Shown here in pieces: positions 9,989 through 50,772 of a DNA stretch of 64,000 nucleotides (positions are counted from its first letter, which is position 1; each line of letters begins with the position of its first letter). Location of the stretch: positions 1 to 64,000 of the IMG/VR virus record IMGVR_UViG_3300034066_001346; one strand, 5' to 3'. The DNA is from a virus. Made by a program: the position numbers and the translations under genes. The notes under the pieces are model-generated. The model was not told the DNA's origin, searched no databases, and saw only the letters and a list, made by a program, of their open reading frames with translations.

Positions 9989-10075
9989 AAAATGAGAGTT
10001 AGCGTATTCGTAAATGCATCATACAATGATTATATCTTGACCTGCCCAAATATGTCAATATGGTATAATTAACCT

Positions 10076-10882
10076 ATGTTTAAAGATAACCCTAATATAG
10101 AGCAAATCGGTACAAACGTTTTTGTATACAGAAACTTTGTACCAGCAGAATTAGTTAAAACAATTAATGACAAAATGGCCACATACGAACTTGAAGACTA
10201 TAAAATTCAAAATGGTGAAGTTGCTATTAATTGGTACTCAGAGAAAAGCAGTAAGCTTACTCCAGAGTTATTCCCTGTATGGGACATGATTACAGAGCTA
10301 CTAGCTCCTGAACATTGCATTCACCCAAATTTATCTTTACTAGCGATGCGCCCAGGCGACACAATGTTTGTTCACTCAGATTCACCTGGAAGAGACATGG
10401 AAGAAGATCTTACTCAACCAGATAGATGGAACACATGCTGCATTATTGAATATGGTGTTTGTGTTTACTTTGGCGATTACGAAGGTGGAGAGATCTACTA
10501 TCCAAATATCAGCGCAGAAGACGGTTCAACACTCATTGACCATGACACTGACCCAAACTGCCTAACATATGCTGCAAAGCCTGGAGATCTTGTTATACAC
10601 GGTTCTACACACCCTTGGGAACATGGAGTGCGTGAAGTAAAATCTGGAATAAGATATTGCTACTCAAACTTCTCTGTTTTCTCACATGAGAATCCTGGAA
10701 CATTTCCAGTTCCTGGTTCTGAAGAAGAATTAGCACGTAGATCTGATCCTGGACTATGGATGACACCTCTTGGAGAAGTTAATCCACTTACTGGAGTAGC
10801 TCTAACAACCGAAACACATAAAGCTAAGTTTGGTGTTGGTGCCCCTACTCCTGTTGATACAGTATGGAATAAATCTTTATAA
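10076..10882 (+). CDS. 2OG-Fe(II) oxygenase (P4H-like)
   Basis: HSD, DYEGGEIYY and HGVREVKSGIRY motifs; promoter TTGACC..TGGTATAAT immediately upstream, so possibly leaderless. Confidence 0.85.
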   Translation: MFKDNPNIEQIGTNVFVYRNFVPAELVKTINDKMATYELEDYKIQNGEVAINWYSEKSSKLTPELFPVWDMITELLAPEHCIHPNLSLLAMRPGDTMFVHSDSPGRDMEEDLTQPDRWNTCCIIEYGVCVYFGDYEGGEIYYPNISAEDGSTLIDHDTDPNCLTYAAKPGDLVIHGSTHPWEHGVREVKSGIRYCYSNFSVFSHENPGTFPVPGSEEELARRSDPGLWMTPLGEVNPLTGVALTTETHKAKFGVGAPTPVDTVWNKSL

Positions 10883-12140: not shown

Positions 12141-12185
12141 TAAGACATAAGGTTAATCAAGGTGATTAACAGAAAGGAGTTAGAA

Positions 12186-13312
12186 ATGACTAACTCAAAC
12201 TTTGCAAGAGTAGCAACTCTTAGCGACTATCCACAAGGGTTAATGAACCTTTGTCAATGCGGACAGGTTGTTTTAGCCCCCGCTACAATTCACGACATTT
12301 GCCTACCAAATGGCACTTGCCTACATACCGCTTGCGGTAGAGACATTTGGGGAAACCCAATCGCCTAACGGCGTGTCTCCCCAATTTGTCACCGCTATAC
12401 GCTACAATTCCTACTATAACTACTAACGAAAGAAGAACAGACAATGACTATCACTTACTCAATCTGGCAAGGCTCTAAACTAATCTCGGTTAATAATGTT
12501 GCACATGAGGTCAAGGCTATTGACCACTTAATCAACTCGCTTAACGATAGCGAACTAGGCAAGGGTAAGAAATTTACCGCTAATGTAATGGACATCAAGG
12601 TAGGGGCTAACTAATGACTAAATGGGACACGATACAAGCAGATGTGCAAGACCAATACGCACACCTAGCAGAAGAAGAAATGTATGAGCAACTAATGGCA
12701 GAAGAAGAAGATGTATTCGGATTTGTTAAGGCTATACAGATTGACCACTTAACAGATGAACAACTAGATGAGGTATTCGACATGTTTGGAGATAAGTAAT
12801 GACTATCGAACTAAACGAATACGGCTTCATGTTTGACATGGGCGATTTTATCTATCTATCCCTATCATGGGCTTTTATTATCTTGTCCGCCCTTGTTTTT
12901 ATCGGGTATAAGGTTTATAAGAGAGTGCAAGCCCATAGATGGGCATCACTAGTAAAAGATGAACTATCTACAGATGAATGGGGTATCTAATGAATAGACT
13001 ACTTACTACACTAGTGCAACTATCTATTGCTATCCCCGCCCTATACATGGCACGCATTGTATGGCATGACTTTATTAGCGAGATGAAGGAGTTATTTAAT
13101 TGAGTATGACACAATTTGAAAGAGACCTAACTATAAAAGAAAGCTTTATGGATTTACTTAATGAGATTTATCCAGAGGTAAAGATTGGGTACTCTACCTT
13201 TACCCCCGCCGAGATCTTGGAGTGTTGCGACCCTATCGCCTTTAACATTGGTGTTATAGAGCATGAGGACTACATGCGTGAGTGTGGCATGCTAGATGAT
13301 GAAGATATGTAA
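12186..13312 (+). other. Cluster of small early hypothetical ORFs (12186-12368, 12444-12614, 12614-12799, 12799-12990, 12990-13103, 13100-13312)
   Basis: Tightly packed plus-strand ORFs with TAATG-type overlaps and RBS. Confidence 0.7.
12387..12408 (+). promoter_or_regulatory. Early promoter TGTCAC-N10-TACAAT
   Basis: Repeated motif; CGGCGTGTC just upstream at 12369-12377. Confidence 0.7.
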
Positions 13313-13452: not shown

Positions 13453-13474
13453 TGTCGGTCATGTGTGATAGGCT
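13453..13474 (+). promoter_or_regulatory. Early promoter TGTCGG-N10-TAGGCT
   Basis: Repeated motif. Confidence 0.65.
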
Positions 13475-13499
13475 TTCGTTATCAACGAAAGGAAAACTT

Positions 13500-14172: not shown

Positions 14173-14202
14173 ACTCTTATCAACAAACGAAAGGCGGACA
14201 CC

Positions 14203-15081
14203 ATGTCAGCAAATGTCTATACAATCGAAAGCCTACTTGTAGGAAAAACCTATCGCTCAAAGTCTCTTACTGGAGAAATCATAGACGCAGAAAAGTCTGA
14301 TGATGTCTGGTATGCAGATTGCGATACTTATAAAGTGCAGGTTCGTCCTCACTATTCAGCACCGCTAAACCTCAAAGACACTTATCGTTATTTGGCAGTA
14401 AAGATTTAACGGGTATCGAAACAGGGGTAGTTTAGAGGGAGTCCTCGCCCAATGTCGTAAGTAAGAACCCTCACAAAATTTGTCAGCCCTAACTGATACA
14501 ATAACTTAAACAAACAAACGAAAGGAAAACTATAAATGGGAAATTTCTTAGATGTAATGGACGAGGGAACTATCTCCGTCATCACTTGCGAGGATTGCTT
14601 AGGATTTGGCGCAATCTTTTGGGGAGATGAAAACTCCTATGATGTAGAGCCATGCGATTGCGTAACTAACGAAATTGGAGATTACTAAAATGTATAAGAT
14701 TACTTTATCCTATGACGGAAATTCTGTTCGCTGGAGTAATGACTATGATGATGCATTGGAAGCATTTACCGCATTTGCTAAATTTACTGATGTCGGATTT
14801 GCTAACGAATACTCAACGATTAACCTATCAATGCCAACAGGCAAGATGTACACAAAAGTAATTGACCGCATGGGAAAGGTAACAATTAAATGATGACCCG
14901 TAAAGACTATGTCGCAACCGCAGAAATTCTAAAGTATGTTAGCGATAAAACTCATCCCGCTGTTTTTTCTAAAATGGTAAATGATTTTGCGGAAATGTTC
15001 GCAAAGGATAACGACCGATTTGATGTAACACGATTTCACGAAGCGAGTGGATACAATGTTCCAAAATTCACTTCGAGATAA
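14203..15081 (+). other. Small early ORFs (14203-14409, 14536-14688, 14690-14893, 14890-15081)
   Basis: RBS-preceded plus-strand ORFs. Confidence 0.65.
14481..14502 (+). promoter_or_regulatory. Early promoter TGTCAG-N10-TACAAT
   Basis: Repeated motif. Confidence 0.75.
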
Positions 15082-15427: not shown

Positions 15428-15457
15428 TCCATTATCAAACAAACGAAAGGTAAAACA

Positions 15458-16328
15458 ATGGTATCAATCGCACACTCTCTAAACTTCGTAACAGAGGTTG
15501 ATGAAACTAACCCAACAGGTGCCCGTCTATTGGCACTTGATAAGGCGTCACAAATTGCTATGCTAGAAGGCGCATTAAAGTCTATGGTGCTACCTGCAAT
15601 TTATCCAGTACTAGAAACAATTAACGAAGGTGGCTCTTGGGCTATCGTAAAGGTGGCAGAATAAATGGGATACAACACTGCGCTAGATTTATCTAATGAA
15701 TTAGATTTAGAGGTTGCTCTTGGTTATCACTTGCAAGGTAATCACTATCCACCAGTTCCGCTTTCTATGGTGGAGCCTTGCATAGAAGCAATTGATGCTT
15801 TCTATGATGAGGACTACAATCGTGAAATTGCTTTACCTGAAGGCGTGTTATGGCGTGGACAGGTTACTGCACCCGCATCCGCAATTGTTGATGCACACCA
15901 CTTAAATGCTTGGCTACCAGAGGAGGAATACTAATGAACAATCTTTATTCTATCTTATCCGAAAGACACCCAGACGGAGACTTTAATGAAATGGATCTAT
16001 GGGAGGCTATCGCAGACTCAGAAGGCTTGGAGCTGAACGAAATTATGGACGGCGACCTAACAGAATACTTGTGATGCTTATCACACCCCAGGGGCTTGAT
16101 AAATGTCAGACCCTAATGCTACAATAACACCCTAAACAGAAAGGAAGCAAAATGACAGTAAATGGATACACTTACAAGGTTGGCGATTTATTCACCACTC
16201 TTAAGTCAAAGAAAACTGGAGTAATCAAAGAGATTATTCCTAACGCATCTGGCTCGGTGCGTGTGCTACTGGAAATGCCAACAAAGGAAACTCGTTGGAC
16301 AACAGTTAGCAACAATAGCCTAGTATAA
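15458..16328 (+). other. Small early ORFs (15458-15664, 15665-15934, 15934-16074, 16152-16328)
   Basis: RBS-preceded plus-strand ORFs. Confidence 0.65.
16070..16125 (+). promoter_or_regulatory. CRP site (16070-16085) plus early promoter TGTCAG-N10-TACAAT (16104-16125)
   Basis: TGTGATGCTTATCACA; repeated promoter motif. Confidence 0.75.
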
Positions 16329-16373: not shown

Positions 16374-16409
16374 ACAATTAACCAAACCAACTAACGAAAG
16401 AGGAAACAA

Positions 16410-17364: not shown

Positions 17365-17396
17365 CAGTTTATCAACCAACCGAAAGGAAATAAATT

Positions 17397-18708: not shown

Positions 18709-18738
18709 TCTGACATATCACCAACGAAAGGATATCAA

Positions 18739-19392
18739 ATGCCAAACTGGGTATTTAATGGATTAACCGTAGAAGGTAATCCTGAATCAGTTAAGAAAAT
18801 GATGGCTCAATTAAATAAGCCATTTACTCAAATGCATGATTCATGGGATGTAAGTAAGAATACATTCATGAAGAAGAATACTTTATATGCAGAGCCTGTC
18901 TTTGCATTTCATAATATCTATAACTACATGGATGCTGGTATTACTGAAGAAGTATATCTTGGTCAGCCTGACTATTCCCTCCCAATTTCAGAAGCAATGA
19001 AGTGTCTTACTGATGACTGGTATAACTTTAATATCCGTGAGTGGGGAACTAAATGGGATGTTGCCGTATCTGTAAATGACAAGTATCCTGATACTAATAT
19101 GGAGGAAACCGCCAATGGTGATAACCATGTAGTTCATTATAATTTTCAAACTGCTTGGGGTCGCCCAATGGGTGCATTAACTAAACTATCTGCACAATAC
19201 CCTGACTTGCTATTTACTTTATCATATGAGGAAGAGACTGGCTGGGGCGGTGAACTAGAAATCCTTCGTGGTGTAGTTATCTCAGAATCAGAATACGATA
19301 ACATTTGTCGTGAATGTGATGAGACTGATTGTTTAATCTATGATGATGAAAAGGGTGTAGAGACATGCCAGAAGTGTGGGTATGAATCATGA
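18739..19392 (+). CDS. DUF1281 / YubB ferredoxin-like domain protein
   Basis: MPNWVFN, DWYNFNIREWGTKWD, FQTAW and YEEE motifs. Confidence 0.75.
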   Translation: MPNWVFNGLTVEGNPESVKKMMAQLNKPFTQMHDSWDVSKNTFMKKNTLYAEPVFAFHNIYNYMDAGITEEVYLGQPDYSLPISEAMKCLTDDWYNFNIREWGTKWDVAVSVNDKYPDTNMEETANGDNHVVHYNFQTAWGRPMGALTKLSAQYPDLLFTLSYEEETGWGGELEILRGVVISESEYDNICRECDETDCLIYDDEKGVETCQKCGYES

Positions 19393-20009
19393 CAGATTTA
19401 ATTTCATCTAAATATACATTTGTCTGTGACCCAAATGAATGTGATTCTTTAATCGAACTAACATCATCAGATGGATTTGGATTCCCATCTGGTGTGACCG
19501 AGCTCACATGCCCTTGTGGTCGCAAGACTACATTATTGTCAGTGGAGCATGCTACACTACCAACAACAAACCAAACGAAAGAGGAAAAAATGGACCAGCC
19601 AGTAATCGATAACCACTACATGACACGAGACTTCCTTGAGTCACAGTTAGTAGAAAACAAAGCACGCATAGCACAGTTAGAAGAACAGATTCAGCGTGTA
19701 ACTCAGCGTGACTATGCAACCGCATCAACCTTAAATAAGTTGCGTGATGACATGAAGATATTTACTCTGGAGGGACTTGATGACGATTCTATTACAGAAT
19801 ATCAAGCCGAAGAAATTGCAAGCATCTGCGGTTTCGAACTAACAAATGAATTTGAGTTGACTGTAACAGTTCAATATTCAGTTACAGTTAATGCTAGAAG
19901 CGAAGAGGATGCTATTAATTCAATTCACGATACAGACTTTGACACAGTGTCATATGATGAACCAATTACATATTTGTCATCATCTATAGATTCAATCGAG
20001 GTGGACTAA
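19389..20009 (+). CDS. Zn-finger-like N-terminus fused in frame to a separately promoted gene (internal ATG 19590)
   Basis: CDPNEC..CPCG; internal CRP site 19493, promoter 19537-19558, RBS 19574. Confidence 0.65.
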   Translation: MTDLISSKYTFVCDPNECDSLIELTSSDGFGFPSGVTELTCPCGRKTTLLSVEHATLPTTNQTKEEKMDQPVIDNHYMTRDFLESQLVENKARIAQLEEQIQRVTQRDYATASTLNKLRDDMKIFTLEGLDDDSITEYQAEEIASICGFELTNEFELTVTVQYSVTVNARSEEDAINSIHDTDFDTVSYDEPITYLSSSIDSIEVD

Positions 20010-20940
20010 TGTACTTTGAACTTACTGCACCAACTAAGGTGGCCTATGCACGGGCCACCTGGGAGGCGGAGATGCTTGGTTTAGATCCTGAAGCCAGCGA
20101 AGAGCCGTTGACATTCAACATTGGAACTGGTAGTATTGAGAAAGTAACACACCTTAGAGAGAAATACAATCTTGAAGAAGTGTATGTTTCTGAATTCGAA
20201 CCAACGGGATATATAAGGAGTTAAAGTGTCAGACTACAAAGAAGGATTTACAGACGGGTACAAGTTTGCTCGTGAAGAACTAATGGAGAAGTTGCGTGAG
20301 ATTGATATCACCGATATCGATTCATGGTTACTTAATCAATTAGCAGATATGATTGAAGGCAACGACCTGTGACAGAAGACTTAACTAGATGGATTGGCTG
20401 TGACCAATGTGGCACGGCTCAAGCAATGTATGTAGTTAAACTAGTAGAAGGTGAGCTTTTCTTTTGTGGCCACCACTACAATGCAAGCAAGCGTGGCCTT
20501 GACAAGGTCGCATATGAAGTAGTAGAATTAAACAAAACCGAAGCAGTACCTACATTAGAAGAGGCGGAACTATAATGGGAGACAGAGCAAATTTTGGATT
20601 TAAACAAAACAGCGGTGACACATTGTTTTTGTACGGGCACTGGGCAGGTCACAACATGCTTGGCAACTTGGCAGCAGCGCTGTCTGCAGCAGAGCCAAGG
20701 TGGGGTGACTCATCCTATGCAACACGAATTGCTACATCACATTTAATTGGAGATGAATGGACTTCAACAACTGGTTGGGGCTTTAGCATTAATCGATTGG
20801 ATGACAATGAGCACAAGGTACCTGTTGTCAATTGGGCAGAACAAACCGTAACTCTTTTTGAAGAGGACCTTACTACAGTCGTAGCAAAGTTCGGCATTGC
20901 TGAATTTGTAAATAGGTATACATTAGTCTCAGTTGACTAA
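20009..20940 (+). other. Early ORFs (20009-20224, 20227-20372, 20369-20575 with CxxC..CGHH, 20575-20940)
   Basis: Overlapping plus-strand ORFs. Confidence 0.65.
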
Positions 20941-20957
20941 TATGATATAATAGTATT

Positions 20958-21082
20958 TTAGGGTGCTTCTATCTAGTCGTATGGCCAGGAGCTAAGTAAG
21001 GCAGAGATTGTTACTTTCGTTGGTTACTCTTAGCAGCCCTAATCTATGGTCCCCCAGGTAAGATCTGGGGGATCTTCTTTTT
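20958..21082 (+). ncRNA. Candidate trans-acting small RNA antisense to the early-gene RBS leader
   Basis: TGATATAAT promoter (TATAAT 20946-20951); closing stem TTAGGG/CCCTAA; seed CTTTCGTTGGTT 21014-21025; terminator 21050-21082; no ORF. Confidence 0.65.
21050..21082 (+). terminator. Intrinsic terminator
   Basis: TCCCCCAG-N7-CTGGGGGA followed by TCTTCTTTTT. Confidence 0.8.
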
Positions 21083-21219
21083 GCCCACAAAGACATGAGG
21101 GTATATTATTCTCTTTAAGAAGTCAAGTAAAAATCCCCTGAAATTTTGTGAGCTTTGCCACAATGTGGCGGGTATCACATAGGAAATCTATTCCATTTGT
21201 CAGTGCCTTAATATATAAT
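21083..21219 (+). promoter_or_regulatory. Composite element, two near-consensus CRP sites (21147, 21164) and early promoter (21198-21219)
   Basis: TTAAG at 21115 and CCCTGAA at 21136; TGTCAG-N10-TATAAT. Confidence 0.75.
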
Positions 21220-21243
21220 AATCACATAACGAAAGGGATAAAA

Positions 21244-22732
21244 ATGGAAGCATTTACAGATACAGTAGGAGAGCATATTCTTGGAGCAATTCAAGTAGAT
21301 ATTGAGCAACATCTATTTGAGCAATGGAACAATGCTAACTTAGATGAAGGCTCAGCATATGCAGAATATAAGTTTATGCAATTTGCACCTGATAACTTAA
21401 AACAATCATATAATGAATACTACGGGTATATTGAAGGAGATGAGTTCTTACTATGATGTTAGGATATACTGAAATAGATATAGATAGAATGAAGTTTGCT
21501 TTGAATATGGCTGCTTTCTATTTACCGCCAGCCCAAGAAGATATCAAAATTAGATTAGAAGAAGTTCATGAGTTTTTAGACAAAATGCTAGCGGAAGGGA
21601 AAATGTAATGTTAGGTTATTCTAATAAAGATCTAGATGAAATGGTCTATGCAATTCAATCTGTAATAACTACCGTGGATTCCAATGATGACCCGTTTTTA
21701 CACGGGAACTTATGGAAAGCACAGGAGTTTCTACAAGGACTATGGGCAGAGGGTTATTTTGACTAAGTCATCCCACTTCCTAGAATATATAAAGCTTCAT
21801 TTAATTAGTCTTATCCAGGACTTAGATAAGTTACATTCAACTGATGATAACTTTAAATTTGTTGAAGGACAAATTGAGGCAACCAGGCATTTATTGTCAG
21901 TGGCAACTGATATAATGAACTCTACTAACGAAAGGTATGAATAATGAATATAACATCTAGAGAAGTTACTTATCGTTCCGCCGTCGAACAAATCTTTTTT
22001 GAGGACGGGACTGAATTAGTAATAACAATTGGCGCTCCTGCCGAAGGCGGAGGCGATATCGATATTGAATATAATTGGGTAGAAGGAAAGCCTGATTGGG
22101 CAGACAACTTAAATGAATCAACACTAGTGAACTATGAGGTAATCTAATGAATCAAGAAGACATTGGGCTCCCGCCCCATTTGCAACGCATGGTCAATGCA
22201 GGAGTATCAGGCCTTGACATTATCCACGGTGAACTAAAGAACTTAATGCTGATTGCCGAGCAAGAACTTGCAGACGCAATCGAACGGGAAGAGGAGTCAG
22301 AAGAAGCAATGGACTCCATGGTCCGTACGGAATGTGAAGGCGCACTAGACACCTTGGTAGCGCTATATGAACTTACTTACCAACTATCATTTGCGATTGG
22401 AGCACGGAATGAAGCCTGAAGATAAAGATAAACTAAATAAGTGTTTAGAGATCTTGGACACCACCGACCTTGGGCTATCCATGGTATGGCTGTGGACCTG
22501 GTCGACTATTCAAAACATCGTTAGCGATGACAACTGGACTGCACAGGCAACCCTTGATGAGATGTGGGAGCACCTGTGTGAGGCTGTAGAGGCAGGCCAG
22601 GGATTCTCCTTAGAGTACGGAGCAGAACAGCACCAGGACGATGTACTTGAATGGATGTTAAATCGTGGGTACATCTTGGACCCACTAGATTCACTTGATG
22701 ATGAGGATGAAGAAGATGCAAGCGACGAGTAA
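21244..22732 (+). other. Early small ORFs (21244-21456, two MLGY-starting paralogues near 21453 and 21608, an ORF ending 21944, 21944-22147, 22147-22419, 22409-22732)
   Basis: Packed plus-strand ORFs; internal early promoter at 21895-21916. Confidence 0.6.
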
Positions 22733-25255: not shown

Positions 25256-25486
25256 TTACTTATTCCTTGGGATTAGTGTTTGTGGTCCTTCTGTACCAAA
25301 TAGGGATTTCTTTACTGGGACACAATTAGGTACTCTTCTACCGCCTTTATCCTTCATACCCACCTGCTTATATCCGCTCCAGCAAGCCTTCTCCATATTG
25401 TCCCATTTGTCCTCTTCTTCATTATCTGAGGTATAGCCCTTTGAGATCTCTTCATCTGTTAATTCAATGTTGTCGTTGTTTTCCAT
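25256..25486 (-). CDS. Small protein with the phage CWxGYxxxGxKxKxGxxVPNCVP motif
   Basis: Motif visible in the translation. Confidence 0.6.
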   Translation of the reverse strand: MENNDNIELTDEEISKGYTSDNEEEDKWDNMEKACWSGYKQVGMKDKGGRRVPNCVPVKKSLFGTEGPQTLIPRNK

Positions 25487-25802
25487 AAATCTATTATACC
25501 ATATTCCTAGTCAACTGATATGGACATTACCTTACAATAGATTAATTGATCTTCTACCTTATGCCAATCCCAAAATAAAGGATCTTTAAATGGTTGATTG
25601 CATACATCACACTCTGGTGGTTTCATTCCTCTTCCCCATCTACAAGTAAAGCTTTATTCATCCAGATCTCACCTGCTGGATTCATGGAATACATCAGATA
25701 CATTAGCTCACCGCAAAATTTACAATCAGGTACTGAGGTAAGCTTATTTACACTCATCTTTAATTCCGCTTTACACTTACATTTCCATCCGTAATCATAC
25801 AT

Positions 25803-28029: not shown

Positions 28030-28091
28030 TTTACCGCCTTCTTTCTATAGATAACTATTTTATAATATAAAAAATAGTATGTCAATACTTG

Positions 28092-28163
28092 CTGGGAATA
28101 CTGGATTCGAACCAATGACCTAGAAGTTAACAGCTTCCCGCTCTGCCGCTGAGCTAATCCCCA
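28092..28163 (-). tRNA. tRNA-Asn(GUU)
   Basis: Cloverleaf; GGAAG-CTGTTAA-CTTCT. Confidence 0.9.
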
Positions 28164-28342
28164 ATTAATTTATCTTTGATTCTTTTCCATTTTCCGTACT
28201 TAGTAGGAACTCCACAGCCTAAATACTCTTGTCCAGTCTCCATATCAATTAGCTTCCATTTACCTGGAGCCTTAGTATGAATTGTTAAATCAACTGCATT
28301 AGGATATTCTTCAACATGGGATCCGTCTAGAAGCCTTCTCAC
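28154..28342 (-). CDS. Hypothetical protein
   Basis: 62-aa ORF whose stop overlaps the tRNA 5' end. Confidence 0.5.
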   Translation of the reverse strand: MRRLLDGSHVEEYPNAVDLTIHTKAPGKWKLIDMETGQEYLGCGVPTKYGKWKRIKDKLIGD

Positions 28343-28467
28343 TTTTCTTCCTCTGGCTCTTTTGTTTGCACAAAAGGTGTGCCCTTTGAGTTTTCAATTA
28401 ATCTCTTATTATGGCTTCCGTCACAATATGGATGATTTGCACTCTTGTTGCATACACACATTTTCAT
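28339..28467 (-). CDS. CDGSH iron-sulfur domain mini-protein (not in ORF track)
   Basis: CVCNKSANHPYCDGSH. Confidence 0.8.
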   Translation of the reverse strand: MKMCVCNKSANHPYCDGSHNKRLIENSKGTPFVQTKEPEEEK

Positions 28468-28607
28468 TTAATCAATCTCCTCAATAGGTATCATTCTGTT
28501 GCATCTCTTACAATAATCGTATGACATTCCAGTAAATGGGCAAGAGCCTCCATAAACTAAATTATGACTCTTGATACTGCAAATAATACCACCGAAAAAA
28601 TCTTTTA

Positions 28608-29135
28608 TCATGCAGATAATATCTTTGAAACTGCATTCATTGTTGCTGCAATTCTTCCGATATCTCTTAGTTGCTCTGCTGTATAGCCAAACCCTTTAAG
28701 AGTTTCATAATGGCCCTTTACGCAGAAATGACATTTACCTACAATTGATGCAGCTAAAGAATACCCCTCAAACTTTGTCTTTTCAGTTCCGCCATGTGTG
28801 GCAATAGCATTCATTCTTAGCTGAGCTGGAAGGCCAGAAAGGTTAGGGTCATCTGCCATCTCTAAATATGGATACCAAACATTGTTTTGAGCCATTATGG
28901 ATCCAGCTGTAAGAGCAGCATTTTTTTCAACTTCATTATCTGAGTTTGATGATATGAATGCAACAAGCTTGGAGTTTCCAGTAGCAAACGCTGCGGCAAG
29001 AGCTATGTATCTTGCGTCCTCTGTATTAATCCCAGAGCTTCTATTCATTACAGAATCAAGGTTAAGCTTTATATCTTTAGCATATTCAGGGAGTGACTCC
29101 TTAAGTAGCTCTACCCAATCAGCCAATTGTTTCAC
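28608..29135 (-). CDS. ahpD: Alkyl hydroperoxidase AhpD
   Basis: LPEYAKDIKLNL, MAQNNVWY and GKCHFCVKGH motifs; directly downstream of ahpC. Confidence 0.88.
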   Translation of the reverse strand: MKQLADWVELLKESLPEYAKDIKLNLDSVMNRSSGINTEDARYIALAAAFATGNSKLVAFISSNSDNEVEKNAALTAGSIMAQNNVWYPYLEMADDPNLSGLPAQLRMNAIATHGGTEKTKFEGYSLAASIVGKCHFCVKGHYETLKGFGYTAEQLRDIGRIAATMNAVSKILSA

Positions 29136-29658
29136 CGCCTAAAGGTCTGTTACATGCACAAAGCTCTCCCGTTTGCAGAGCATCTAAAACACGAAGAGCT
29201 TCATCGGCATTTCTTCCAACATCAAGATTATTAACAGTTACATGCTGAATTGTATTTTCTGGATCGATTATAAATGTTGCACGATATGCAACTCCTGATG
29301 GAGATATTACTCCAAGATCTTCTGCCAATTGTCTGGCTGTATCAGCAAAAGACCACGAGTTTGTTTTACGTAGATCTTCGTGTGCATTTCTCCATGCAAT
29401 CTTACAAAATTCATTATCTACAGAGCCTGTTATAAGAACGGTATCTCTGTCATTAAAGTCATTAACTAGTTTGTCATAAGCAACAATTTCTGTTGGACAT
29501 ACAAATGTAAAATCTTTTGGATAAAAAACAATTATCTTCCACTTTCCAGGAAATGAGTCCTGATTAAGAACTTCAAAAGAACTATCTTCATAAGTTAAGG
29601 CACCTGGCTTAACTCCAACTAAAGAAAAATTACCTAACTTATCACCGATTGTTTTCAT
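29119..29658 (-). CDS. ahpC: Peroxiredoxin AhpC
   Basis: FYPKDFTFVCPTE, GRNADEALRVLDALQ and LCACN motifs. Confidence 0.95.
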   Translation of the reverse strand: MKTIGDKLGNFSLVGVKPGALTYEDSSFEVLNQDSFPGKWKIIVFYPKDFTFVCPTEIVAYDKLVNDFNDRDTVLITGSVDNEFCKIAWRNAHEDLRKTNSWSFADTARQLAEDLGVISPSGVAYRATFIIDPENTIQHVTVNNLDVGRNADEALRVLDALQTGELCACNRPLGGETIG

Positions 29659-30368
29659 TTTATCTTTTCTTCTATAAAAAATGGTACTTCGTGCACCATA
29701 AAACCTACTTAATTATACAATATTTAAAAACTGATGTCAACGCTACAATAAGAAAAGCCCACTAATTAATTAATGGACCTTCTTACTATAAAGTTTTTAT
29801 ATTTTTTTTCTTCCAACTTTTTTTGGAGCTAAAGAAGTTTCTCTTCTTATTCCATGTTTGTTAGTGTCAATTTTAGGCTTTGGATTATTCATTCCAGATC
29901 TAAATTTACCTTGGCTTGGTGATTTTGCTGTTGCTTCTCTTGATGTAACTGCACCAGATGGTTCAGAATTTGATGGCGATGCCATTCCTGTTCCGTTTTC
30001 AGACATTAATCCATATCCCCCGATTTAGCTCCAAGTGGGTTAGAGGATTCAGTCCCAAACATTGCTGGCTCAATTACAATTGCTGTTGCGCCAACGTCAT
30101 AAACATTTTGATTTGGTAGCTCTACTCCCATGAAGGCTTCTGAGCTACATCCACACATAGCGCACATATTTTTACTTTGGACCTTGTGCTGATGCCTGGT
30201 TTGAAACATCTGATGCTGAATCAGCTGCTCCTGGTGCTGCTGCGTACTGCTCACCAATTGTGTGCTGTACTGCTGGCTTTACTTCGTTAAATCCTGTTAA
30301 ATTCAATCCGTCTGTCATTTTTTTTCTCCTATAGGTTTGTTATTTAGATGGGTCTAGAATGCCATCTA

Positions 30369-31136
30369 TCAGTCTATTATATCATTTACTTGATAACGGC
30401 TCAGATGCCCTTCCCAGGGCTTTATACCGCTATTTGAGCCATTGTCTGAAGAGATGCCTTTTGACAATGAGTCTAAAACCATTTCTTCAGTAATTTCTAT
30501 TTCTGTTTCATACATTGGTCTATTTCTAGGCCTATCCTTATCCCTTTCATGATATAGAAAGGAAATCATATTATTTCTTACGCCAGATTCAACCTTTTTA
30601 ACACCGTGAGGTATCGTATAGTCTCCCTCAAAAAATATTAATGATCCTGTTGGTGGCTTATATTCAAAATCTTGTAGCGGGAAGTATAGCTCTCCGCCAG
30701 TATAGGCATCGTTTAAGTATAAAAGAGCTGCTCTATCTGAATATTCATTTTCTCTAATCTTTAATGTCTTGTCATCGCTTATATAGTGGTTATCCATATG
30801 CAGCTTATTTTCTGCACCTGGAAGCATGCTGCTGTAAAACATACTTTTTGCTATAAACTTTGTTTCATAGAATAAAGATACAGCCTCAACCATAGAGGTT
30901 GCTATCATCTGAAATAAATCTAATCCTAAATCAAACTCTGGATCTCCAGTATAATCTGAAACATATTCTATTGGTGACACTGCATATCCAGATAATCCGC
31001 CAAAGATAAACTTATTATGTGGTGTTGGGCTTAAAAATTTATTTTGTAGGTTTGTTAACAGATTGGCTGTATGTGGTGAAATAAAATTCTCTATTACATG
31101 AATTTTATCGTGGTATGTAAGTATCTTCTTTTCCAT
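30369..31136 (-). CDS. 2OG-Fe(II) oxygenase
   Basis: HMD, YLNDAYTGGELYF and HGVKKVESGVR motifs. Confidence 0.85.
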   Translation of the reverse strand: MEKKILTYHDKIHVIENFISPHTANLLTNLQNKFLSPTPHNKFIFGGLSGYAVSPIEYVSDYTGDPEFDLGLDLFQMIATSMVEAVSLFYETKFIAKSMFYSSMLPGAENKLHMDNHYISDDKTLKIRENEYSDRAALLYLNDAYTGGELYFPLQDFEYKPPTGSLIFFEGDYTIPHGVKKVESGVRNNMISFLYHERDKDRPRNRPMYETEIEITEEMVLDSLSKGISSDNGSNSGIKPWEGHLSRYQVNDIID

Positions 31137-31407
31137 CTTTTTCTTCCCATCTCTTTTTTAATGCTTCCCAGTCAATTTGATCATATGGAACCTTCTCCCA
31201 TTCACGATATCTGTGCATTTTAGCAAAAGCGCATGGGCAAGATATTCTAAACGGCTTAAATCTTTCTGGTAAATTTGTTACTATATGTATCTGAGTAAAA
31301 CAATCTGGGCATTCAAAGCTGCTTGTTCTCCAGTCATCTGCAACAACACCGTTTTCATAATCCCTAGGTGTTGGCAATCCGATATCTTCTGGATTTTTTT
31401 CTATCAT
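31105..31407 (-). CDS. Zn-binding hypothetical protein
   Basis: CPDC..CPC. Confidence 0.5.
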   Translation of the reverse strand: MIEKNPEDIGLPTPRDYENGVVADDWRTSSFECPDCFTQIHIVTNLPERFKPFRISCPCAFAKMHRYREWEKVPYDQIDWEALKKRWEEKDGKEDTYIPR

Positions 31408-31666
31408 GACTTGTACAACTTATTGTAGCAATTTGAGCACATATCTATTATTCCGCTTTCAGGAAGTGACCCTATATGAGATGCAGGCTTATTACATTCT
31501 TTTACTTCACACTTGCCAGACAACATATTGTTACTTATTTCCCCTAGCTTTTTGTCCACGGTATCCAGTTTTCTTTTTATTCATAGATCCAGGCTTTTTA
31601 TAACCAGATCCGTTTGGCGTAGCAGCGATTCTCTGCTCTAATGCCTTTTGAATTTTGTCTAGATGT

Positions 31667-32470
31667 TTACCCATTAATCTCTCCAATTATCTCTTTTACC
31701 AAATCATGTATATTATGATACTGATCGTCTTGCATGTGGTTAGTTATTTGAATATCTGATATACCACCATTATACAAGTCTATCATAAAATCTTTAACTT
31801 CTTGCCTAGATCCAAATACAGTAAAGTTTGATGCGTAGGGATTTGATAATTTATCCATGACACTTTTTGCCTCAGCATATGTATCCCTTATTACAACCCC
31901 TAGGCTCACCATTTGCCTGCTAGCCATACTAAATTTTATATTATTCTCTGGTTTTTTATATTCAGACCATGAAACTAAACTTGTAAAGTTATTTTTATTA
32001 GAAATCTCAATTGTTTTTTCAGAATGGCCGCCCATTACAATTTCTGGGAAATTGCGTACAGATTTTAATGATAAAAACTTTTTAATCCACTCGTCTGTAT
32101 AGACTAATCTATTTTCAGGAGTGTCTATATATTTAGATATAAATACCGAATCTGACAGAAAGGTTTCTCTGCTATTAATATCTCCAGAAACTATGTTAAG
32201 CATTAGCCTATCTTTTTGAATTTCATCAAAAGCTCTGCAAATCATACCCATGTACTCTGGTGATATGGAGTATGTTCTTATTGCCTGCATATATTTTATT
32301 TTATGATTTTTGTTTAAAGCATAAGCACATTTTATTAAGTTATCTGGGACTAGAGGGTCATAAGTTAACATTAAAGAGTAATAGCCGAACTGATCCAGCT
32401 CTTCTGAAAGATTAATTATTCCTTCTGGAGATAAATCATTTTCTCTACCCATAAAATGAAATCTAATCAA
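31667..32470 (-). CDS. Luciferase-like (LLM) flavin-dependent monooxygenase family protein
   Basis: KIKYMQAIR..SPEY, RLMLNIVSGD and MGGHS motifs (SsuD-like). Confidence 0.7.
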   Translation of the reverse strand: MIRFHFMGRENDLSPEGIINLSEELDQFGYYSLMLTYDPLVPDNLIKCAYALNKNHKIKYMQAIRTYSISPEYMGMICRAFDEIQKDRLMLNIVSGDINSRETFLSDSVFISKYIDTPENRLVYTDEWIKKFLSLKSVRNFPEIVMGGHSEKTIEISNKNNFTSLVSWSEYKKPENNIKFSMASRQMVSLGVVIRDTYAEAKSVMDKLSNPYASNFTVFGSRQEVKDFMIDLYNGGISDIQITNHMQDDQYHNIHDLVKEIIGEING

Positions 32471-32476
32471 TTTTTT

Positions 32477-32677
32477 CTACTTAAGTTTATTTCCAAACTT
32501 AGCCCAAACTCTTTCATGTAGAAAATATCCTAGAGCTTCCCAGCCAATATAAATAAGTGCACCCAGGCTTGCATATTCCCATTCACCCGTAAATAAGTAA
32601 ATAACTCCTGCAACACCAACTAGGTGAAATGTTTCCCAGCTTAATGTTTTTAACAATGTTCTTTTAGTTGATTCCAT
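32477..32677 (-). CDS. DUF2061-like membrane protein
   Basis: ESTKRTLLKTLSW..YFLHERVW. Confidence 0.75.
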   Translation of the reverse strand: MESTKRTLLKTLSWETFHLVGVAGVIYLFTGEWEYASLGALIYIGWEALGYFLHERVWAKFGNKLK

Positions 32678-32711
32678 GTTTTAATTATTCTCTCTATTAG
32701 ATAAAAGGTAA

Positions 32712-32738
32712 ATGGGGCGGATAAAATCCGCCCCATTT
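32712..32738. terminator. Terminator hairpin
   Basis: AATGGGGCGGAT-AAA-ATCCGCCCCATT. Confidence 0.8.
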
Positions 32739-32743
32739 ATTAA

Positions 32744-33904
32744 TTACTTAAGCAAAGATACCTTTGCTTTTGGATTCTTCTTGTTCCACTGAAGAGCCAA
32801 CTTGTTAAATGCAGCCTTTACAGACTTAAGTGTTGCTGCATTATCTGCAGTCAACTTAGCGATCTGTGCATCTTTAGCAGCAAGTGCTGCATCAGAAGCG
32901 ACCTTTGCATCAGCAATAGCCTTGGCAGAAGCAGCTTTTTCAGCAGTAAGAGCCGCAGCAGATGCTGCCTTCTCTGTTGCTAGTGCAGCAGCAGCATCAG
33001 CGTTAGCCTTTACAACTGCAGCATCTGAAATTGCCTTTGCAGCAAGTGCTGCATCCTTAGCTGCAGTCTGTGCAGCAAGTTCTGATACTAGATCACGAAC
33101 TGCGATTTCTGCAAATGGTGCTAGCGTACGAGCAGGAAGACCAACTACATCTGCAGTTGTTGCCTGACCAGCAGTTGTTGGAGCAAACGTAATAAGTGTG
33201 CGTGATCCAGTTGTAGGAAGAGTTACTTTAAACTCAGCCACACCAAAGTCAGAGAGTGCGCTACCTAGTAGTGCCGTTGCTGAATCAAGTGTTCCTGTTG
33301 CAGCAAATACTGTTGCGGTAATTGTTTTTGTAACACCATCAACTGCAGCACCAGAAACCTTGTTTCCAAATACATCTACAGCAGCAACTGTAATTGTTTG
33401 CTTTGTACCTGCAGCACCTGATGCTGGAGCAGTTACTGTTAGGTTGTTGATCTTACCAGCAGTTCCCTGTACATAGTATGTAAGAGTTGTTCCACCGTTG
33501 TTGATTACAACTGTGCCAATTGCTGTTGTCTTTGTATAGACATAGAATGTTGCAGTTGTTCCTGTACCAGTTGCAATGCTTAGGCTTGAAGAGCCTGATG
33601 CCGATGTTACTGGTGCAGCGGTTGTGTGTAGTGCAGACACGATTGTTGCGTTTGTTGTTACTACAGAAACGACTGTTCCTGTGTCAACTGTTGCGACGAA
33701 CCTAAGTGCGTCAGCAGCGTCAACTGTGTTGTCTGCTGGGACTGGCAATGATGCAGGTGTTGCGATTGCTGAGGCAGTTGTGTTAGCCGTTCCAGCGAGA
33801 TCGACAGCGACTGTCATTACAGCAGCACTTGCAGGTGTTGCTACGATTGTGCCCAAAGTCATGGCTGCAACCATGGCTAGTGCGATTTTCTTAAATGAGT
33901 TCAT
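32744..33904 (-). CDS. Secreted Ala/Thr-rich surface (S-layer-like) protein
   Basis: Signal peptide MNSFKKIALAMVAAMTLG..ASA; beta-rich Thr/Val body; Ala/Lys coiled coil. Confidence 0.65.
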   Translation of the reverse strand: MNSFKKIALAMVAAMTLGTIVATPASAAVMTVAVDLAGTANTTASAIATPASLPVPADNTVDAADALRFVATVDTGTVVSVVTTNATIVSALHTTAAPVTSASGSSSLSIATGTGTTATFYVYTKTTAIGTVVINNGGTTLTYYVQGTAGKINNLTVTAPASGAAGTKQTITVAAVDVFGNKVSGAAVDGVTKTITATVFAATGTLDSATALLGSALSDFGVAEFKVTLPTTGSRTLITFAPTTAGQATTADVVGLPARTLAPFAEIAVRDLVSELAAQTAAKDAALAAKAISDAAVVKANADAAAALATEKAASAAALTAEKAASAKAIADAKVASDAALAAKDAQIAKLTADNAATLKSVKAAFNKLALQWNKKNPKAKVSLLK

Positions 33905-34112
33905 TTAATTTATTCTCCTTATTTCCTCTGCCTCTTCATGAGAACAGAAATTTAGTTTTGATCTAATAGTTTTACATGAAAGCTGCATGGATCAAATCCA
34001 GCTTCCCATTCATCTGCTTCTTCATCTGTCATTGGAGCACCTTCATGTGTATCACAAAAGACATCTGAGATCCATTTTTTTTCATATCCAACTAGAAGCC
34101 ATGCTTCAAAGT

Positions 34113-34415
34113 CTAGATCCATTTGGACAACTCCTCAACAAGTACATGCTTTGGTTTTGCTCCAATTATAGTTTTTACTGGTTTACCGCTTTCAAATAAT
34201 ACCATAGTTGGTATTGATGTTACTGAGAATTCGGCAGTTTTTATTGGATTTTCATCAACATTTAACTTTGCAACCCATAAATTATTTTCTGATGATATTT
34301 CATCTAATATGGGTGAAAGCTTTTTACAGGGACCACACCATTCAGCCCAAAAATCAACCAAAACAATCTTGTGTGAATTTATCGTGTCTTCAAATGTGGT
34401 ATCTGTAATGTTCAT
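34113..34415 (-). CDS. trxA: Thioredoxin
   Basis: DFWAEWCGPCK and SIPT motifs. Confidence 0.95.
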   Translation of the reverse strand: MNITDTTFEDTINSHKIVLVDFWAEWCGPCKKLSPILDEISSENNLWVAKLNVDENPIKTAEFSVTSIPTMVLFESGKPVKTIIGAKPKHVLVEELSKWI

Positions 34416-34613
34416 TAACTATCCTTTAGTTGATCTGCTGCTTCATTAAATTTAAACATAAATGTCTGAATTACCCAAATAGCTGTTTCTCCAGCATTTT
34501 TAGCCATAGCCTTCGAAGCCTCTTCGGTTCTATCTTCAATAGCAAGACCATTGTACCATTTTTGGTATAGTTCTTCACCAATATCTTTAATGATTCCTTC
34601 TAAAACTGTAGTC

Positions 34614-35543
34614 TTATCCATTAATTGCCGCCTGCAAGTTAATAATCTTATTCACAGATCCGCTATATGTTTTTGCTACAGATGCAGTTGATTTGAGCAA
34701 AGACAAGTACTGAGTGTATGATAGTCCTGGCTTTGACTGCTTAAGTGCTACCCAGTTGGCTGCCGCAATTTGAGTAGAGATAGAAGTTCCAACTCCATAT
34801 CCTGTCGATCCACCTGGATAAATAACCTTGGCTGATCCTGGTGCAAAGAAACTGAGAAGAGATGTGTCATCATTTGAATAAAATTCAGCCTCAGACTGTG
34901 TGCTTACTGCGCCAACAGATATTGCGTTTGGAACACATGAAGGCCAGTCAACCCTCTTCTTGTCTCCATTATTTCCAGAGGCAAAAAATGGTGCTATTCC
35001 AGCAGCAACCATGCTAGCCAAAGACTTAGTAACAACAGAATTATTCGGGCAGTAATTTGCTCCAGATAAAAGGTTATGGTGTCCTTGTGCCATGGCAACC
35101 GCTTGAATATTAAACCTATCCTTATTTTCGATTACCCAATTTAGTGCTGCGGCTATTTCTGATGGACCAGTTGTCTGTCTTTGTCCAAAAATAGAGTTAC
35201 CAATAATTCTTACAAAAACGATCTGCATGTTGGGGTTTGCTTCTAAAGCAACAGAAGCCATTTGTGTTCCATGATTAAAGTTTCTGCTACTCATGATATT
35301 CATTGGAAGAGATGCAGAGCCTGGGCCCTCCATAAATGCTTTTCCATTAGGACATGTCATCCACTTAATTATACATACTTCGTGTGCAATCTTTCCTTGA
35401 AAAGCTGGAATTGATGAATCAAGTGCCGTATCCAAAATTGCAATTGTTGGAACGGCAGTCGTTGAAGACTTGAGCGCAGCATGTGATGCTGTTGGGATAA
35501 GCACTATCAATGATGTTAGTGCAATTATTAGTTTTTTGTTCAT
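34614..35543 (-). CDS. Secreted subtilisin-like S8 peptidase
   Basis: Signal peptide; ILDT, HGT, ASGN and GTS catalytic motifs. Confidence 0.85.
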   Translation of the reverse strand: MNKKLIIALTSLIVLIPTASHAALKSSTTAVPTIAILDTALDSSIPAFQGKIAHEVCIIKWMTCPNGKAFMEGPGSASLPMNIMSSRNFNHGTQMASVALEANPNMQIVFVRIIGNSIFGQRQTTGPSEIAAALNWVIENKDRFNIQAVAMAQGHHNLLSGANYCPNNSVVTKSLASMVAAGIAPFFASGNNGDKKRVDWPSCVPNAISVGAVSTQSEAEFYSNDDTSLLSFFAPGSAKVIYPGGSTGYGVGTSISTQIAAANWVALKQSKPGLSYTQYLSLLKSTASVAKTYSGSVNKIINLQAAING

Positions 35544-35743
35544 GGCTTTATTCTACTAAAATGCCACTGGTATGTCAATACCCTAGTCTACCTTCTTTTT
35601 ATACCACTTTCCAGCATCCATATCTGGAACTGTTACCTGATTTTGATTTAATAACATTTCTATTGCTGTAAGTGCATACTCCATTTGGAATTGTGTACGC
35701 AAAAGCTCCATCTCAAGGAGTCTTAGTCTTTCTGATTTTCTCA

Positions 35744-36055
35744 TTATTCCATATTCTCTCTATCAACTAATGTTGGTGCAGTAGCAATATTACCACATGA
35801 TGCACACAACATATCTAAGAAATAGGTAGCTATCTCATAGTTTTCAAAAACTGTCTTAACGTACCATATATTAGATCCACATACACATATGTGTGTTGGT
35901 GTACCTCGTAAATCTAATGCTGTTGGCTCTGGCTCTTCTTGTGCCAACTCTTCTTTATCAAATATCAAAACTTCATATTTATCTAAAAAGTTTCTAGCAG
36001 CAGATGCCGATACTAAGCTTAGTATTAGAATAGATAATCTATTAAGCATCTTCAT
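35744..36055 (-). CDS. Zn-ribbon hypothetical protein
   Basis: CVCG..CASCG. Confidence 0.55.
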   Translation of the reverse strand: MKMLNRLSILILSLVSASAARNFLDKYEVLIFDKEELAQEEPEPTALDLRGTPTHICVCGSNIWYVKTVFENYEIATYFLDMLCASCGNIATAPTLVDRENME

Positions 36056-36070
36056 ATAATTAATTATACT

Positions 36071-36625
36071 CTAAACCTGAATATATGTAAAGGGTGGTGC
36101 TACTGACATTGAGAATTCTGACGCCGCTTCTAAAGCTAATTTTAATCTCATCTTGGGATTCTTTTGATTCTTTGTTGCATGAAGGGCTCCAAGGGCAAAC
36201 ATTCCGCCTGAGCCTTCAGCCATATAATTAACTACATTCTCACCAACATGGAAATCTTCATCTACAACAAAGATTCTTCCCTCTAGGCCTACTATAAAGA
36301 TGCCACCAGTATCTTCATCTGTTCCGCCTATATCTCCAAAGCCGTGATCTTTAAATGCCGCTTTAACAGAATCAATAAACTTAGTTCTCATAAACTTATC
36401 TAAGCCTGAGTTAGTCTTTGTTGGAGTATACTTTGGTGGTGTCCATGAGTATTGAAGGATCTGCCCCATGCGAAAGCTATCAGTAAATGCAATACCGTAC
36501 TGTCCAACCTTAAAGCACTTTGGCTCTTTTCTAGACATCACCCATCCACTTTTATCATCAGATGCGGCATGGTCGGAACCCATGTAGACGGTTCCATTTT
36601 GAGCTATAGCAACAATACAGGTCAT
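36071..36625 (-). CDS. Ntn-hydrolase / HslV-proteasome beta-like protein
   Basis: MTCIVA with N-terminal Thr; GSD, K and GSG..ALGAL motifs. Confidence 0.75.
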   Translation of the reverse strand: MTCIVAIAQNGTVYMGSDHAASDDKSGWVMSRKEPKCFKVGQYGIAFTDSFRMGQILQYSWTPPKYTPTKTNSGLDKFMRTKFIDSVKAAFKDHGFGDIGGTDEDTGGIFIVGLEGRIFVVDEDFHVGENVVNYMAEGSGGMFALGALHATKNQKNPKMRLKLALEAASEFSMSVAPPFTYIQV

Positions 36626-36657: not shown

Positions 36658-36966
36658 CTAGTCCTCTTTTAAATGTATCTCAATATGTGATAATTTAATT
36701 AATGTATTTTCAAGCTCAGCTTTAACCTCAATTAATTCCTGAATAGCCTCATAATATTTATTCTTCCACTCATGAAGGTCTTTTTCTAATTGATATAATT
36801 TAATCTCTAAATCTTTTAATTCAAGCTTAAGGTCAGACTGAATTTTCTCTTGCCTTCTAAAGACTTCCCTTTTCTTTTCTTTAATAGAATTAAACAGGGC
36901 AGTGCCAAAACCGCTCAAAATTGAGATTAGTATAGTTATTCCTATTTGAAATGCAGATACTTCCAT
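36658..36966 (-). CDS. Membrane-anchored coiled-coil protein
   Basis: N-terminal TM helix plus heptad repeats. Confidence 0.55.
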   Translation of the reverse strand: MEVSAFQIGITILISILSGFGTALFNSIKEKKREVFRRQEKIQSDLKLELKDLEIKLYQLEKDLHEWKNKYYEAIQELIEVKAELENTLIKLSHIEIHLKED

Positions 36967-36996
36967 TATAATGCAATTATACAGTATAAATGATTA

Positions 36997-50237: not shown

Positions 50238-50757
50238 CCTCTATGACTACTGCTTCAACTATTCCAGTAATTTGAGACAATCTTTTTGCAACATCCATCT
50301 TACATTTAGGGCAAGTAGAGGTAACCTCTTTTAATATCTTTACCAAAACCTCTTGCTTACGTTCTGCTTCTGCAATTTGTGAAGCCAATTCATTATTTTC
50401 AAGTACGCCGACATCTTGAAGCATGCCTATTCTTTTGCCCTCAATGTCCGCTATAAGCTTTAATGCGCCAGCCTTAACATTTAGTTGACCAGACTGGTCT
50501 GCGTCCTCTACGGTCTTCCAGGCCTCTTTAATGAGCATTGCATAGTGTTGGTCGGCACCTGAGATGGCTTCCTTAGCACGGTCTCTAAGGCTGCTATCAT
50601 TATGAACAACGCTCTTCCACTCATCAATAAACTCAACAACCTCTTTACGAGAAAATCCAGTTATAGAAGCAATCTGGGTAGCACTATTACCCTTTAGCAG
50701 TTCTTCAACCACCTTGTTCATTCTATCAAAATGTTGTGCGAGTTCTATTTCAGCCAT
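50221..50757 (-). CDS. Probable terminase small subunit
   Basis: N-terminal HTH and helical body; directly upstream of TerL. Confidence 0.65.
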   Translation of the reverse strand: MAEIELAQHFDRMNKVVEELLKGNSATQIASITGFSRKEVVEFIDEWKSVVHNDSSLRDRAKEAISGADQHYAMLIKEAWKTVEDADQSGQLNVKAGALKLIADIEGKRIGMLQDVGVLENNELASQIAEAERKQEVLVKILKEVTSTCPKCKMDVAKRLSQITGIVEAVVIEDASGI

Positions 50758-50772
50758 AGTTTAATTATACTT

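Follow-up and report, generated by a model that had tools for sequence, protein, structure and literature searches.

Temporal shut-off of early phage genes is known to be achieved by proteins, such as RegA and RegB of phage T4, and by antisense RNAs that act in cis or on a single target. The RegB endoribonuclease and the translational repressor RegA shut off early mRNAs as a class, by way of a signal at or in the Shine-Dalgarno (SD) region. Among RNAs, the c4 antisense RNA of phages P1 and P7, reportedly described by Citron and Schuster in 1990, is among the closest known cases, and the CI RNA of phage P4 is said to be related to it. In bacteria, RsaE/RoxS of the Firmicutes and 6C RNA of the Actinobacteria use pyrimidine-rich, invariant loop seeds directed at the ribosome-binding sites (RBSs) of many mRNAs, and do so without Hfq in Gram-positive bacteria.

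The small RNA (sRNA) that we describe here resembles c4 in being a phage-encoded, folded RNA with a loop complementary in trans to leader sequence that includes the RBS, and it too may shut off phage genes. However, c4 is processed from the operon of its single target, serves lysogenic immunity and uses two loops against two sites in one leader, whereas the RNA described here is a stand-alone gene with its own promoter and terminator and a single seed facing at least 13 dispersed candidate targets; we find no sequence or Rfam relation between the two. RegA and RegB are proteins, whereas the candidate agent here is an RNA loop and the signal an SD sequence extended on its 5' side (AAC-G). RsaE/RoxS and 6C, in turn, are host-encoded and have C-rich seeds and other folds, whereas ours is a phage-encoded three-way junction with invariant junction bases and no Rfam model match, whose candidate targets are the phage's own temporal class. 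The RNA is a member of none of these groups, from which it differs in fold, gene organisation and target number.

A different kind of precedent is offered by the start-associated sequences (SAS) of Cluster K mycobacteriophages, 13-nt sequences found 3-9 nt upstream of the starts of 11-19 non-structural genes; they are asymmetric, contain the SD and reach beyond 16S pairing, one reverse-oriented copy is present in several genomes, and whether they are bound by an RNA or a protein was left open (Pope et al., PMC3203893). Their role is still called unknown (PMC11373665), and neither PMC3203893 nor PMC11373665 describes an RNA partner. The SAS motif, GGGATAGGAGCCC, differs from the early leaders discussed below, as do the phages and the host.

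The window that we analysed is the first 64 kb of a 96,797-bp IMG/VR viral contig (about 81% complete, 37% G+C). It encodes a DnaE-type polymerase that, among cultured viruses, is nearest to that of Streptomyces siphoviruses in the family Stanwilliamsviridae (57% identity; BillNye and others). Small genes of early type form a 12-kb block on the plus strand, at about 12.0-23.6 kb. Several leaderless genes start 6-7 nt downstream of a TGGTATAAT box, leaderless starts being typical of Actinobacteria, and other genes have AAGGAG or AGAAAGG as RBS. Because of these relatives, leaderless starts and RBSs, the host is most likely a low-G+C freshwater actinobacterium. No integrase was seen in the window.

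A conserved small RNA gene with a three-way-junction fold

At 20941-21082 the first-pass annotation had proposed a small RNA bracketed by an extended -10 element and a strong terminator, free of ORFs and closed by a TTAGGG/CCCTAA stem, and each part of this anatomy was borne out. As expected for a trans-encoded sRNA, the unit has its own promoter and intrinsic terminator and no conserved ORF. From the sequence, the extended -10 promoter, TGATATAAT, is read at 20943-20951 (+), and the terminator occupies 21048-21082 (+), where a G+C-rich 12-bp hairpin (21048-21074, with seven G-C pairs) is followed by the T-run TTCTTTTT. The only ORFs that overlap the unit are unconserved and 31-44 aa long, and the indels that separate relatives at this place are not multiples of three. 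The closing stem is present and covaries in relatives. Of 113 distinct family loci, 83 have a TGnTAnnnT element no more than 80 nt upstream of the RNA, the extended -10 boxes around the RNA including TGATATAAT and TGGTATAAT, and 88 have a terminator downstream of it, a simple detector having missed some with longer loops. The terminator sequences vary across the family, without relation to the RNA core. Because it has no TGTCAG box, the sRNA promoter is of a different class from the 13 early promoters described below.

Other features of this promoter landscape were noted in passing. TG(G)TATAAT-type -10 boxes placed 6-7 nt upstream of an ATG occur at 10055-10078 (+), 25486-25510 (-), 36966-36990 (-) and 50757-50780 (-); these leaderless promoters are of the class of the sRNA promoter, not of the TGTCAG early class. 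Directly downstream of the sRNA terminator, at 21081-21145, lies a strongly conserved promoter-like block, TTGCCC(G/A)CAAAG..GAGGGTAnnAT followed by TTA(C/A)G, which is found in the same place in relatives and is part of an upstream cassette repeated 5' of the early promoters. Some relatives have TTGACA in place of the sRNA terminator.

Searches for known RNA classes and for relatives in cultured phages gave no match at the locus. ARAGORN and a tRNA model placed seven tRNAs elsewhere in the window and no tRNA, tmRNA or tRNA-like element at 20941-21082. Rfam 15, run on the window at the gathering threshold, returned tRNAs only, and on 20850-21250 at E<=10 its best matches were fragments resembling terminators, which scored 17-18 bits where the thresholds are 39-56; blastn of the sRNA region against cultured phages found nothing. 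The unit also lacks the marks of a riboswitch or other cis-acting 5' leader: the terminators vary freely, with no alternative pairing to the closing helix, and the next gene is preceded by a conserved promoter cassette of its own and by a TGTCAG promoter (about 21198).

Using phrog_31860, the gene 5' of the RNA, as an anchor, we collected 53 related loci, and CTTTCGTT stands at the equivalent downstream place in all 53. An alignment of 30 distinct copies yielded a three-way junction, whose core is at 20958-21042 (+) in the window as judged by RNAalifold, pair counts and a covariance model. Helix P1 (20958-20964 with 21036-21042) closes the molecule, and P2 (20965-20970 with 20987-20992) is stacked directly on P1. 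After P2 the consensus fold has an unpaired UAAnUAAnGC stretch, J2/3, which reads UAAGUAAG at 20993-21000, and then P3 (GCAG.../...CUAGC with a bulged A; 21001-21006 with 21027-21034). The apical loop of P3 is 14-21 nt long in the family; it spans 21007-21026 in the window, bears the seed described below and is mostly unpaired when the consensus helices are enforced.

All three helices are supported by covariation. In a set of 96 distinct sequences, aligned by fitting to the model, 98.2% of the cells hold standard pairs, and each of the three helices shows double-sided changes; a pair in P2, for example, is GC in 47 sequences, CG in 31, AU in 16 and UA in 2. The covariation score is 0.381, as compared with 0.140 in shuffles (none of 500 reach 0.381) and at most 0.083 when the partners are slid. 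An independent MAFFT/RNAalifold run gave the same pairs as the model-fitted alignment. The scaffold and junction bases GGUGC, CUA, UAAnUAAnGC and GCAGCC are invariant, even in five loci that carry another P3 loop. Two candidate resemblances were rejected: a pairing of J2/3 (UAAGUAA) with UUACUU of the P3 loop, for which the changes across subfamilies, judged by eye, are not compensatory, and a likeness by eye to words of SRP RNA or to helix 45 of 16S rRNA, given that P2 covaries freely and no Rfam model matches.

The covariance model found exactly one copy in each of the 97 sources searched, and model R1 recovered the single copy in the window's genome with 81.5 bits (E 2e-15). A scan of IMG/VR with a pattern made of the scaffold invariants, the P3 loop being left free, returned at least 118 stretches; together with the syntenic loci these amount to at least 171 loci on about 140 distinct IMG/VR contigs (at least), with 96 distinct RNA sequences. 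In 185,579 bacterial and archaeal species genomes the RNA was found on three MAG contigs of about 3 kb and nowhere else. The RNA is a structured, conserved, independent small RNA gene, and, since no Rfam model matches it and the bacterial and archaeal scan gave only those three MAG contigs, it represents a phage RNA family outside Rfam.

Among cultured phages, a weak match to the covariance model was seen in Streptomyces phage BillNye (NC_042105, 115862-115937; L179:1501-1576; 15.6 bits, E 0.46). It lies in the early gp037-gp036 intergenic region, which adjoins Lsr2-like genes, downstream of a TTGACA-17-TACAAT promoter, and has P2-like and J2/3-like features without CUUUCGUU; the match may mark a distant homologue in this cultured phage. 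The same search of Streptomyces phage Mildred21 gave no match.

The P3 loop and the early leaders

The first-pass annotation had placed the complement of a shared early leader sequence at the centre of the unit, at 21014-21025, and CTTTCGTTGGTT is found there, encoded by CTTTCGTT(GGTT). The seed proper, CUUUCGUU at 21014-21021 (+), is the complement of AACGAAAG, and its pairing can be extended by GGUU at 21022-25. Among the matches listed, the seed is present in the P3 loop of 166 of the 171 loci, in a search whose pattern did not specify it. Across the 96 distinct sequences, in which the stems have changed repeatedly, no other unpaired stretch is as well conserved as this 8-mer, whose mean unpaired probability in the family is 0.65, the remainder of the molecule having 0.40. 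We stress that plain energy folding of the window copy gives a minimum free energy (MFE) structure of -42.0 kcal/mol in which most of the seed is paired, and that the covariation-supported fold, in which the seed is mostly open, has -37.5 kcal/mol and thus lies 4.5 kcal/mol above it. This predicted burial is a real weakness of the reading of the loop as a seed. A buried or unconserved seed had been named beforehand as an outcome that would speak against the sRNA; the conserved single-stranded seed expected of a trans-encoded sRNA is there in the consensus fold, though the MFE structure of the window copy pairs it.

On the plus strand of the 96,797-bp genome AACGAAAG has ten copies, none of them outside the early leaders, and these stand at precisely the ten positions listed in the first-pass annotation, each 8-11 nt upstream of an ATG and about 14-25 nt downstream of a TGTCAG-N10-TAnnnT promoter. 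The predicted duplexes with the loop are of -15.7 kcal/mol at 12425-12432, -14.3 at 13484-13491, -12.7 at 14186-14193, -11.7 at 14517-14524, -13.0 at 15442-15449, -16.1 at 16393-16400, -17.1 at 18723-18730, -14.0 at 19574-19581, -13.2 at 21228-21235 (the gene directly downstream of the sRNA) and -16.4 at 21927-21934. Three further promoters of the TGTCAG class have AAC(A/C)GAAAGG leaders, each with one extra base, again where they had been reported: AACAGAAAGG at 12168-12177 (+; -10.4 kcal/mol) and 16135-16144 (+; -10.3 kcal/mol), and AACCGAAAGG at 17378-17387 (+; -15.3 kcal/mol). The leader at 19574-19581 lies inside ORF 19389-20009, upstream of an in-frame ATG. A full early promoter and AACGAAAG leader (19537-19592) are contained in this 206-aa ORF, the ATG being residue 68, so that either one frame has two nested products or the long ORF is over-called. 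The minus strand has two copies of AACGAAAG, one in the sRNA and one at 13473 that overlaps a -10 region by chance. This second CTTTCGTT was considered as a cis anti-SD hairpin and rejected; because it coincides in part with that promoter's -10 and discriminator, it is probably absent from the mRNA.

The leaders are short and A/C-rich, and the bases in which they go beyond a plain SD, namely AAC and a C in place of A, are those matched by the RNA. The late genes have AGAAAGG or AAGGAG as RBS instead of the AACG leader. The leader C mismatches a generic CCUCCUUUCU 16S tail, which would want A there and may not be the tail of the host, and faces a G of the RNA. For the 13 leaders the predicted duplexes range from -10.3 to -17.1 kcal/mol with the loop, versus -6.0 to -12.9 kcal/mol with the generic CCUCCUUUCU 16S tail, which again may differ from the host's own; at eight late sites the predicted duplex with the loop has -3.9 to -11.3 kcal/mol.

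These energies were computed with the loop only, and exact-complement counts were used for the genome-wide comparison. When the complementary plus-strand sites are counted for each 8-mer of the RNA, the seed ranks highest, with ten, and the neighbouring CG-containing 8-mers have 0-3; the only sites commoner overall than those of the seed are A-rich complements of the terminator T-tail, on the other strand. A sliding RNAduplex scan of the genome with a 28-nt stretch that included P3 stem bases did not rank the leaders first, and we judged it uninformative because stem bases and long G-U-rich duplexes dominate it. Leaders with AACGAAAG occur in all 53 syntenic relatives, and the conserved complementary sites at target RBSs that are expected of a trans-encoded sRNA are therefore present.

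Loop, leaders and scaffold among relatives

Among the 53 syntenic relatives the seed core and the leader core are both invariant and, because both partners are frozen, no compensatory change is seen inside the 8-bp core. The flanking bases do vary. In loci with a C directly preceding the seed (UUCCUUUCGUU, complement AACGAAAGGAA), 93% of the leaders have G at +1 and 49% have GAA; with A or U in that place, the shares fall to 65-69% and 7-13%. Cognate C-seed/C-leader duplexes average -15.4 kcal/mol, as against -13.2 to -13.6 kcal/mol for non-cognate ones.

Five listed loci, from two lineages (L088/L111/L120 and L075/L157), keep the scaffold and have an unrelated P3 loop. Their 45 kb contain no AACGAAAG on either strand, compared with 0.4-0.7 per kb in seed-bearing loci. 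They do have TGTCAG-N10-TAnnnT promoters, and they share early genes with the window phage; their leaders carry AGAAAGG or AAGGAG, or the ATG directly follows the -10 box (leaderless). A search for repeated complementary targets of the seedless P3 loops within their own loci found none. The scaffold-only variants include L111:2994-3059, L120:5070-5134 (-) and L157:5680-5750 (-), with P3 loops such as AGGAG-CCUCGAAAA-CUCCU. The covariation of seed and leader that had been anticipated is accordingly seen in the flanks, which track each other, and in the lack of AACG leaders from seedless loci; the core itself is invariant and shows no compensation. Both patterns, that in the flanks and that in the seedless loci, come from a small number of independent lineages and could reflect lineage effects.

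In one further locus, L239, the scaffold (reverse strand coordinates 2302-2380) lies downstream of the syntenic gene, and its P3 is short and seedless. At 4925-5000, 2.6 kb from the scaffold and between a stop codon and the next promoter, a second hairpin, of 12 bp, has UUCCCUUUCGUUG in its loop, as if the seed had moved to another RNA. No relatives of this hairpin were found in IMG/VR, where it is a singleton.

The leaders also occur apart from the RNA. A leader-first scan for such cases covered partial loci, with about 50 chance matches estimated for its pattern, and gave little information; whole-record searches of leader-rich contigs with the covariance model and with the pattern recovered the RNA from part of these contigs, and the ones that lack it are mostly fragments. 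One, G001 (IMGVR_UViG_3300044612_001159), is a complete 115.7-kb genome with a DnaE 53% identical. At 28039-36371 it has promoters of the window's early class, TGTCAG-N10-TAGACT, and six clustered AACGAAAGG leaders, and the whole genome contains neither a scaffold RNA at E<=10 nor an intergenic anti-leader sequence, its sole CTTTCGTT being inside a long ORF on the other strand. Another, G010 (a 48-kb, 40% fragment with ten leaders and the same kind of promoter), has no RNA or intergenic anti-leader sequence in its early block. Since these two have leaders and no RNA, the leader motif is older or more widespread than the RNA and must have a reason of its own to exist. This weakens the original idea that the leader barcode exists for the sake of this RNA, and it makes G001, with its leaders and no recognisable sRNA, a useful natural control.

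Candidate functions and a parallel in Cluster K

From these observations, we hypothesize that 20958-21082 encodes a small RNA of about 125 nt, with its own extended -10 promoter, intrinsic terminator and three-way-junction fold, and that its P3 apical loop displays CUUUCGUU. By pairing in trans with the AAC(N)GAAAG that each of the 13 early units has in its short leader, the loop would cover the SD. Because the predicted leader duplexes are stronger than those with the generic 16S tail, the RNA would compete with the ribosome, which would reduce translation of the whole early class and possibly lower mRNA stability; late genes with AGAAAGG or AAGGAG would be spared. That a trans-acting sRNA pairs with the early RBSs and represses them is the explanation we prefer, and we consider the chances for and against it to be about equal. 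The gene anatomy, fold, conservation, complementarity and co-distribution are observed, and from them we infer expression, pairing in the cell, the repressive sign of the effect and its timing. The first-pass proposal that one trans-acting RNA silences the early regulon is thereby strengthened as regards a conserved folded RNA, an invariant anti-leader loop and their co-distribution with the leaders, and weakened as regards a barcode made for the RNA. The scaffold is invariant and is retained even in RNAs with another loop, which suggests an additional function, for example the docking of a protein.

It is this last point that gives rise to the main rival, which we regard as possible, if unlikely: the RNA would pair with the leaders while its scaffold recruits a protein (an RNase, a chaperone or the ribosome) and P3 serves as an exchangeable guide, the outcome being cleavage, stabilisation or activation. 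The five loci with another P3 loop nonetheless retain the invariant junction and scaffold bases, so that scaffold and targeting loop behave as separate modules, and L239, with its seedless short P3 and its separate UUCCCUUUCGUUG hairpin 2.6 kb away, points in the same direction. However, we identified no partner protein, and the adjacent gene has no known family and changes its position relative to the RNA in seedless relatives. An activating role, moreover, would find no obvious structure to open, since the leaders are A/C-rich and short. It is rather improbable that the loop is an anti-SD mimic directed mainly at host mRNAs for the purpose of shut-off, the match to the phage leaders being incidental or serving to titrate the RNA. 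The seed of one subfamily does read UCCUUUC, which we take to be the last bases of the generic CCUCCUUUCU 16S tail, and other phage genes also have GAAAGG-type RBSs; but the invariant GUU (and GG) 3' of CUUUC matches the leader AAC (and CC), beyond the end of the 16S tail, and AGAAAGG sites would give a G-A mismatch.

G001 and G010 have leaders and no RNA, and five loci have the scaffold and no seed, so that leader motif and scaffold can each stand alone, and one might suppose that the RNA acts by its fold alone and that the complementarity is a frozen relic, for example of an inverted copy of a leader. A relic would drift, however, and the seed is the most conserved unpaired stretch of the RNA, with flanks that track those of the leaders; we give this explanation little credence. 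The notion that there is no RNA gene at all, and that the region is either a site acting at the level of DNA or a leader that controls the downstream gene in cis, appeals to the many DNA motifs that fill the 300-nt intergenic region. We hold it to be highly improbable: the RNA helices are preserved by compensatory changes, the terminator sequences vary without relation to the core, and a separate TGTCAG promoter, at about 21198, serves the downstream gene.

Our preferred explanation, repression by a loop that reads an extended SD, bears on the SAS of Cluster K. Genes 92 and 93 of phage Adephagia (JF704105) are separated by 432 nt, and the reverse SAS within this gap (58682-58694) makes up the apical loop of a long hairpin, a loop of 10 nt that reads CCUCCUAUCC. 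The 171-nt region around it (58589-58759; L181:33590-33760) has a folding z of -6.0, and the hairpin region is conserved, mostly unannotated, in 143 Cluster K records. Pairing of the helices is kept, with some double changes, in six divergent copies, five of which have the CCUCCU loop. Published RNA-seq places a start of late transcription in the gap between genes 92 and 93. An anti-SAS loop on a late RNA fits the same switch logic, and this hairpin may be an analogous anti-SAS RNA; we offer it as a lead, not a result.

More generally, we tentatively propose, while thinking it rather doubtful, that actinobacterial phages widely use a class barcode fused to the SD together with a single RNA that carries the anti-barcode in a hairpin loop, is made from another class of promoter and turns the class off, with a modular scaffold and guide loop, and that this explains the SAS of Cluster K. 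If true, one trans-acting RNA reading the barcode of a dozen RBSs would be a new and very economical design, the scaffold would possibly be a protein-docking platform that carries an exchangeable guide loop, and the barcode/anti-barcode logic would explain a 15-year-old puzzle in Cluster K mycobacteriophages, a hypothesis that can be tested in phages of Mycobacterium smegmatis. Barcode/anti-barcode pairs might also provide orthogonal translational switches for Actinobacteria. The RNA itself constitutes a new structured RNA family, found on about 140 (at least) contigs of uncultured freshwater phages.
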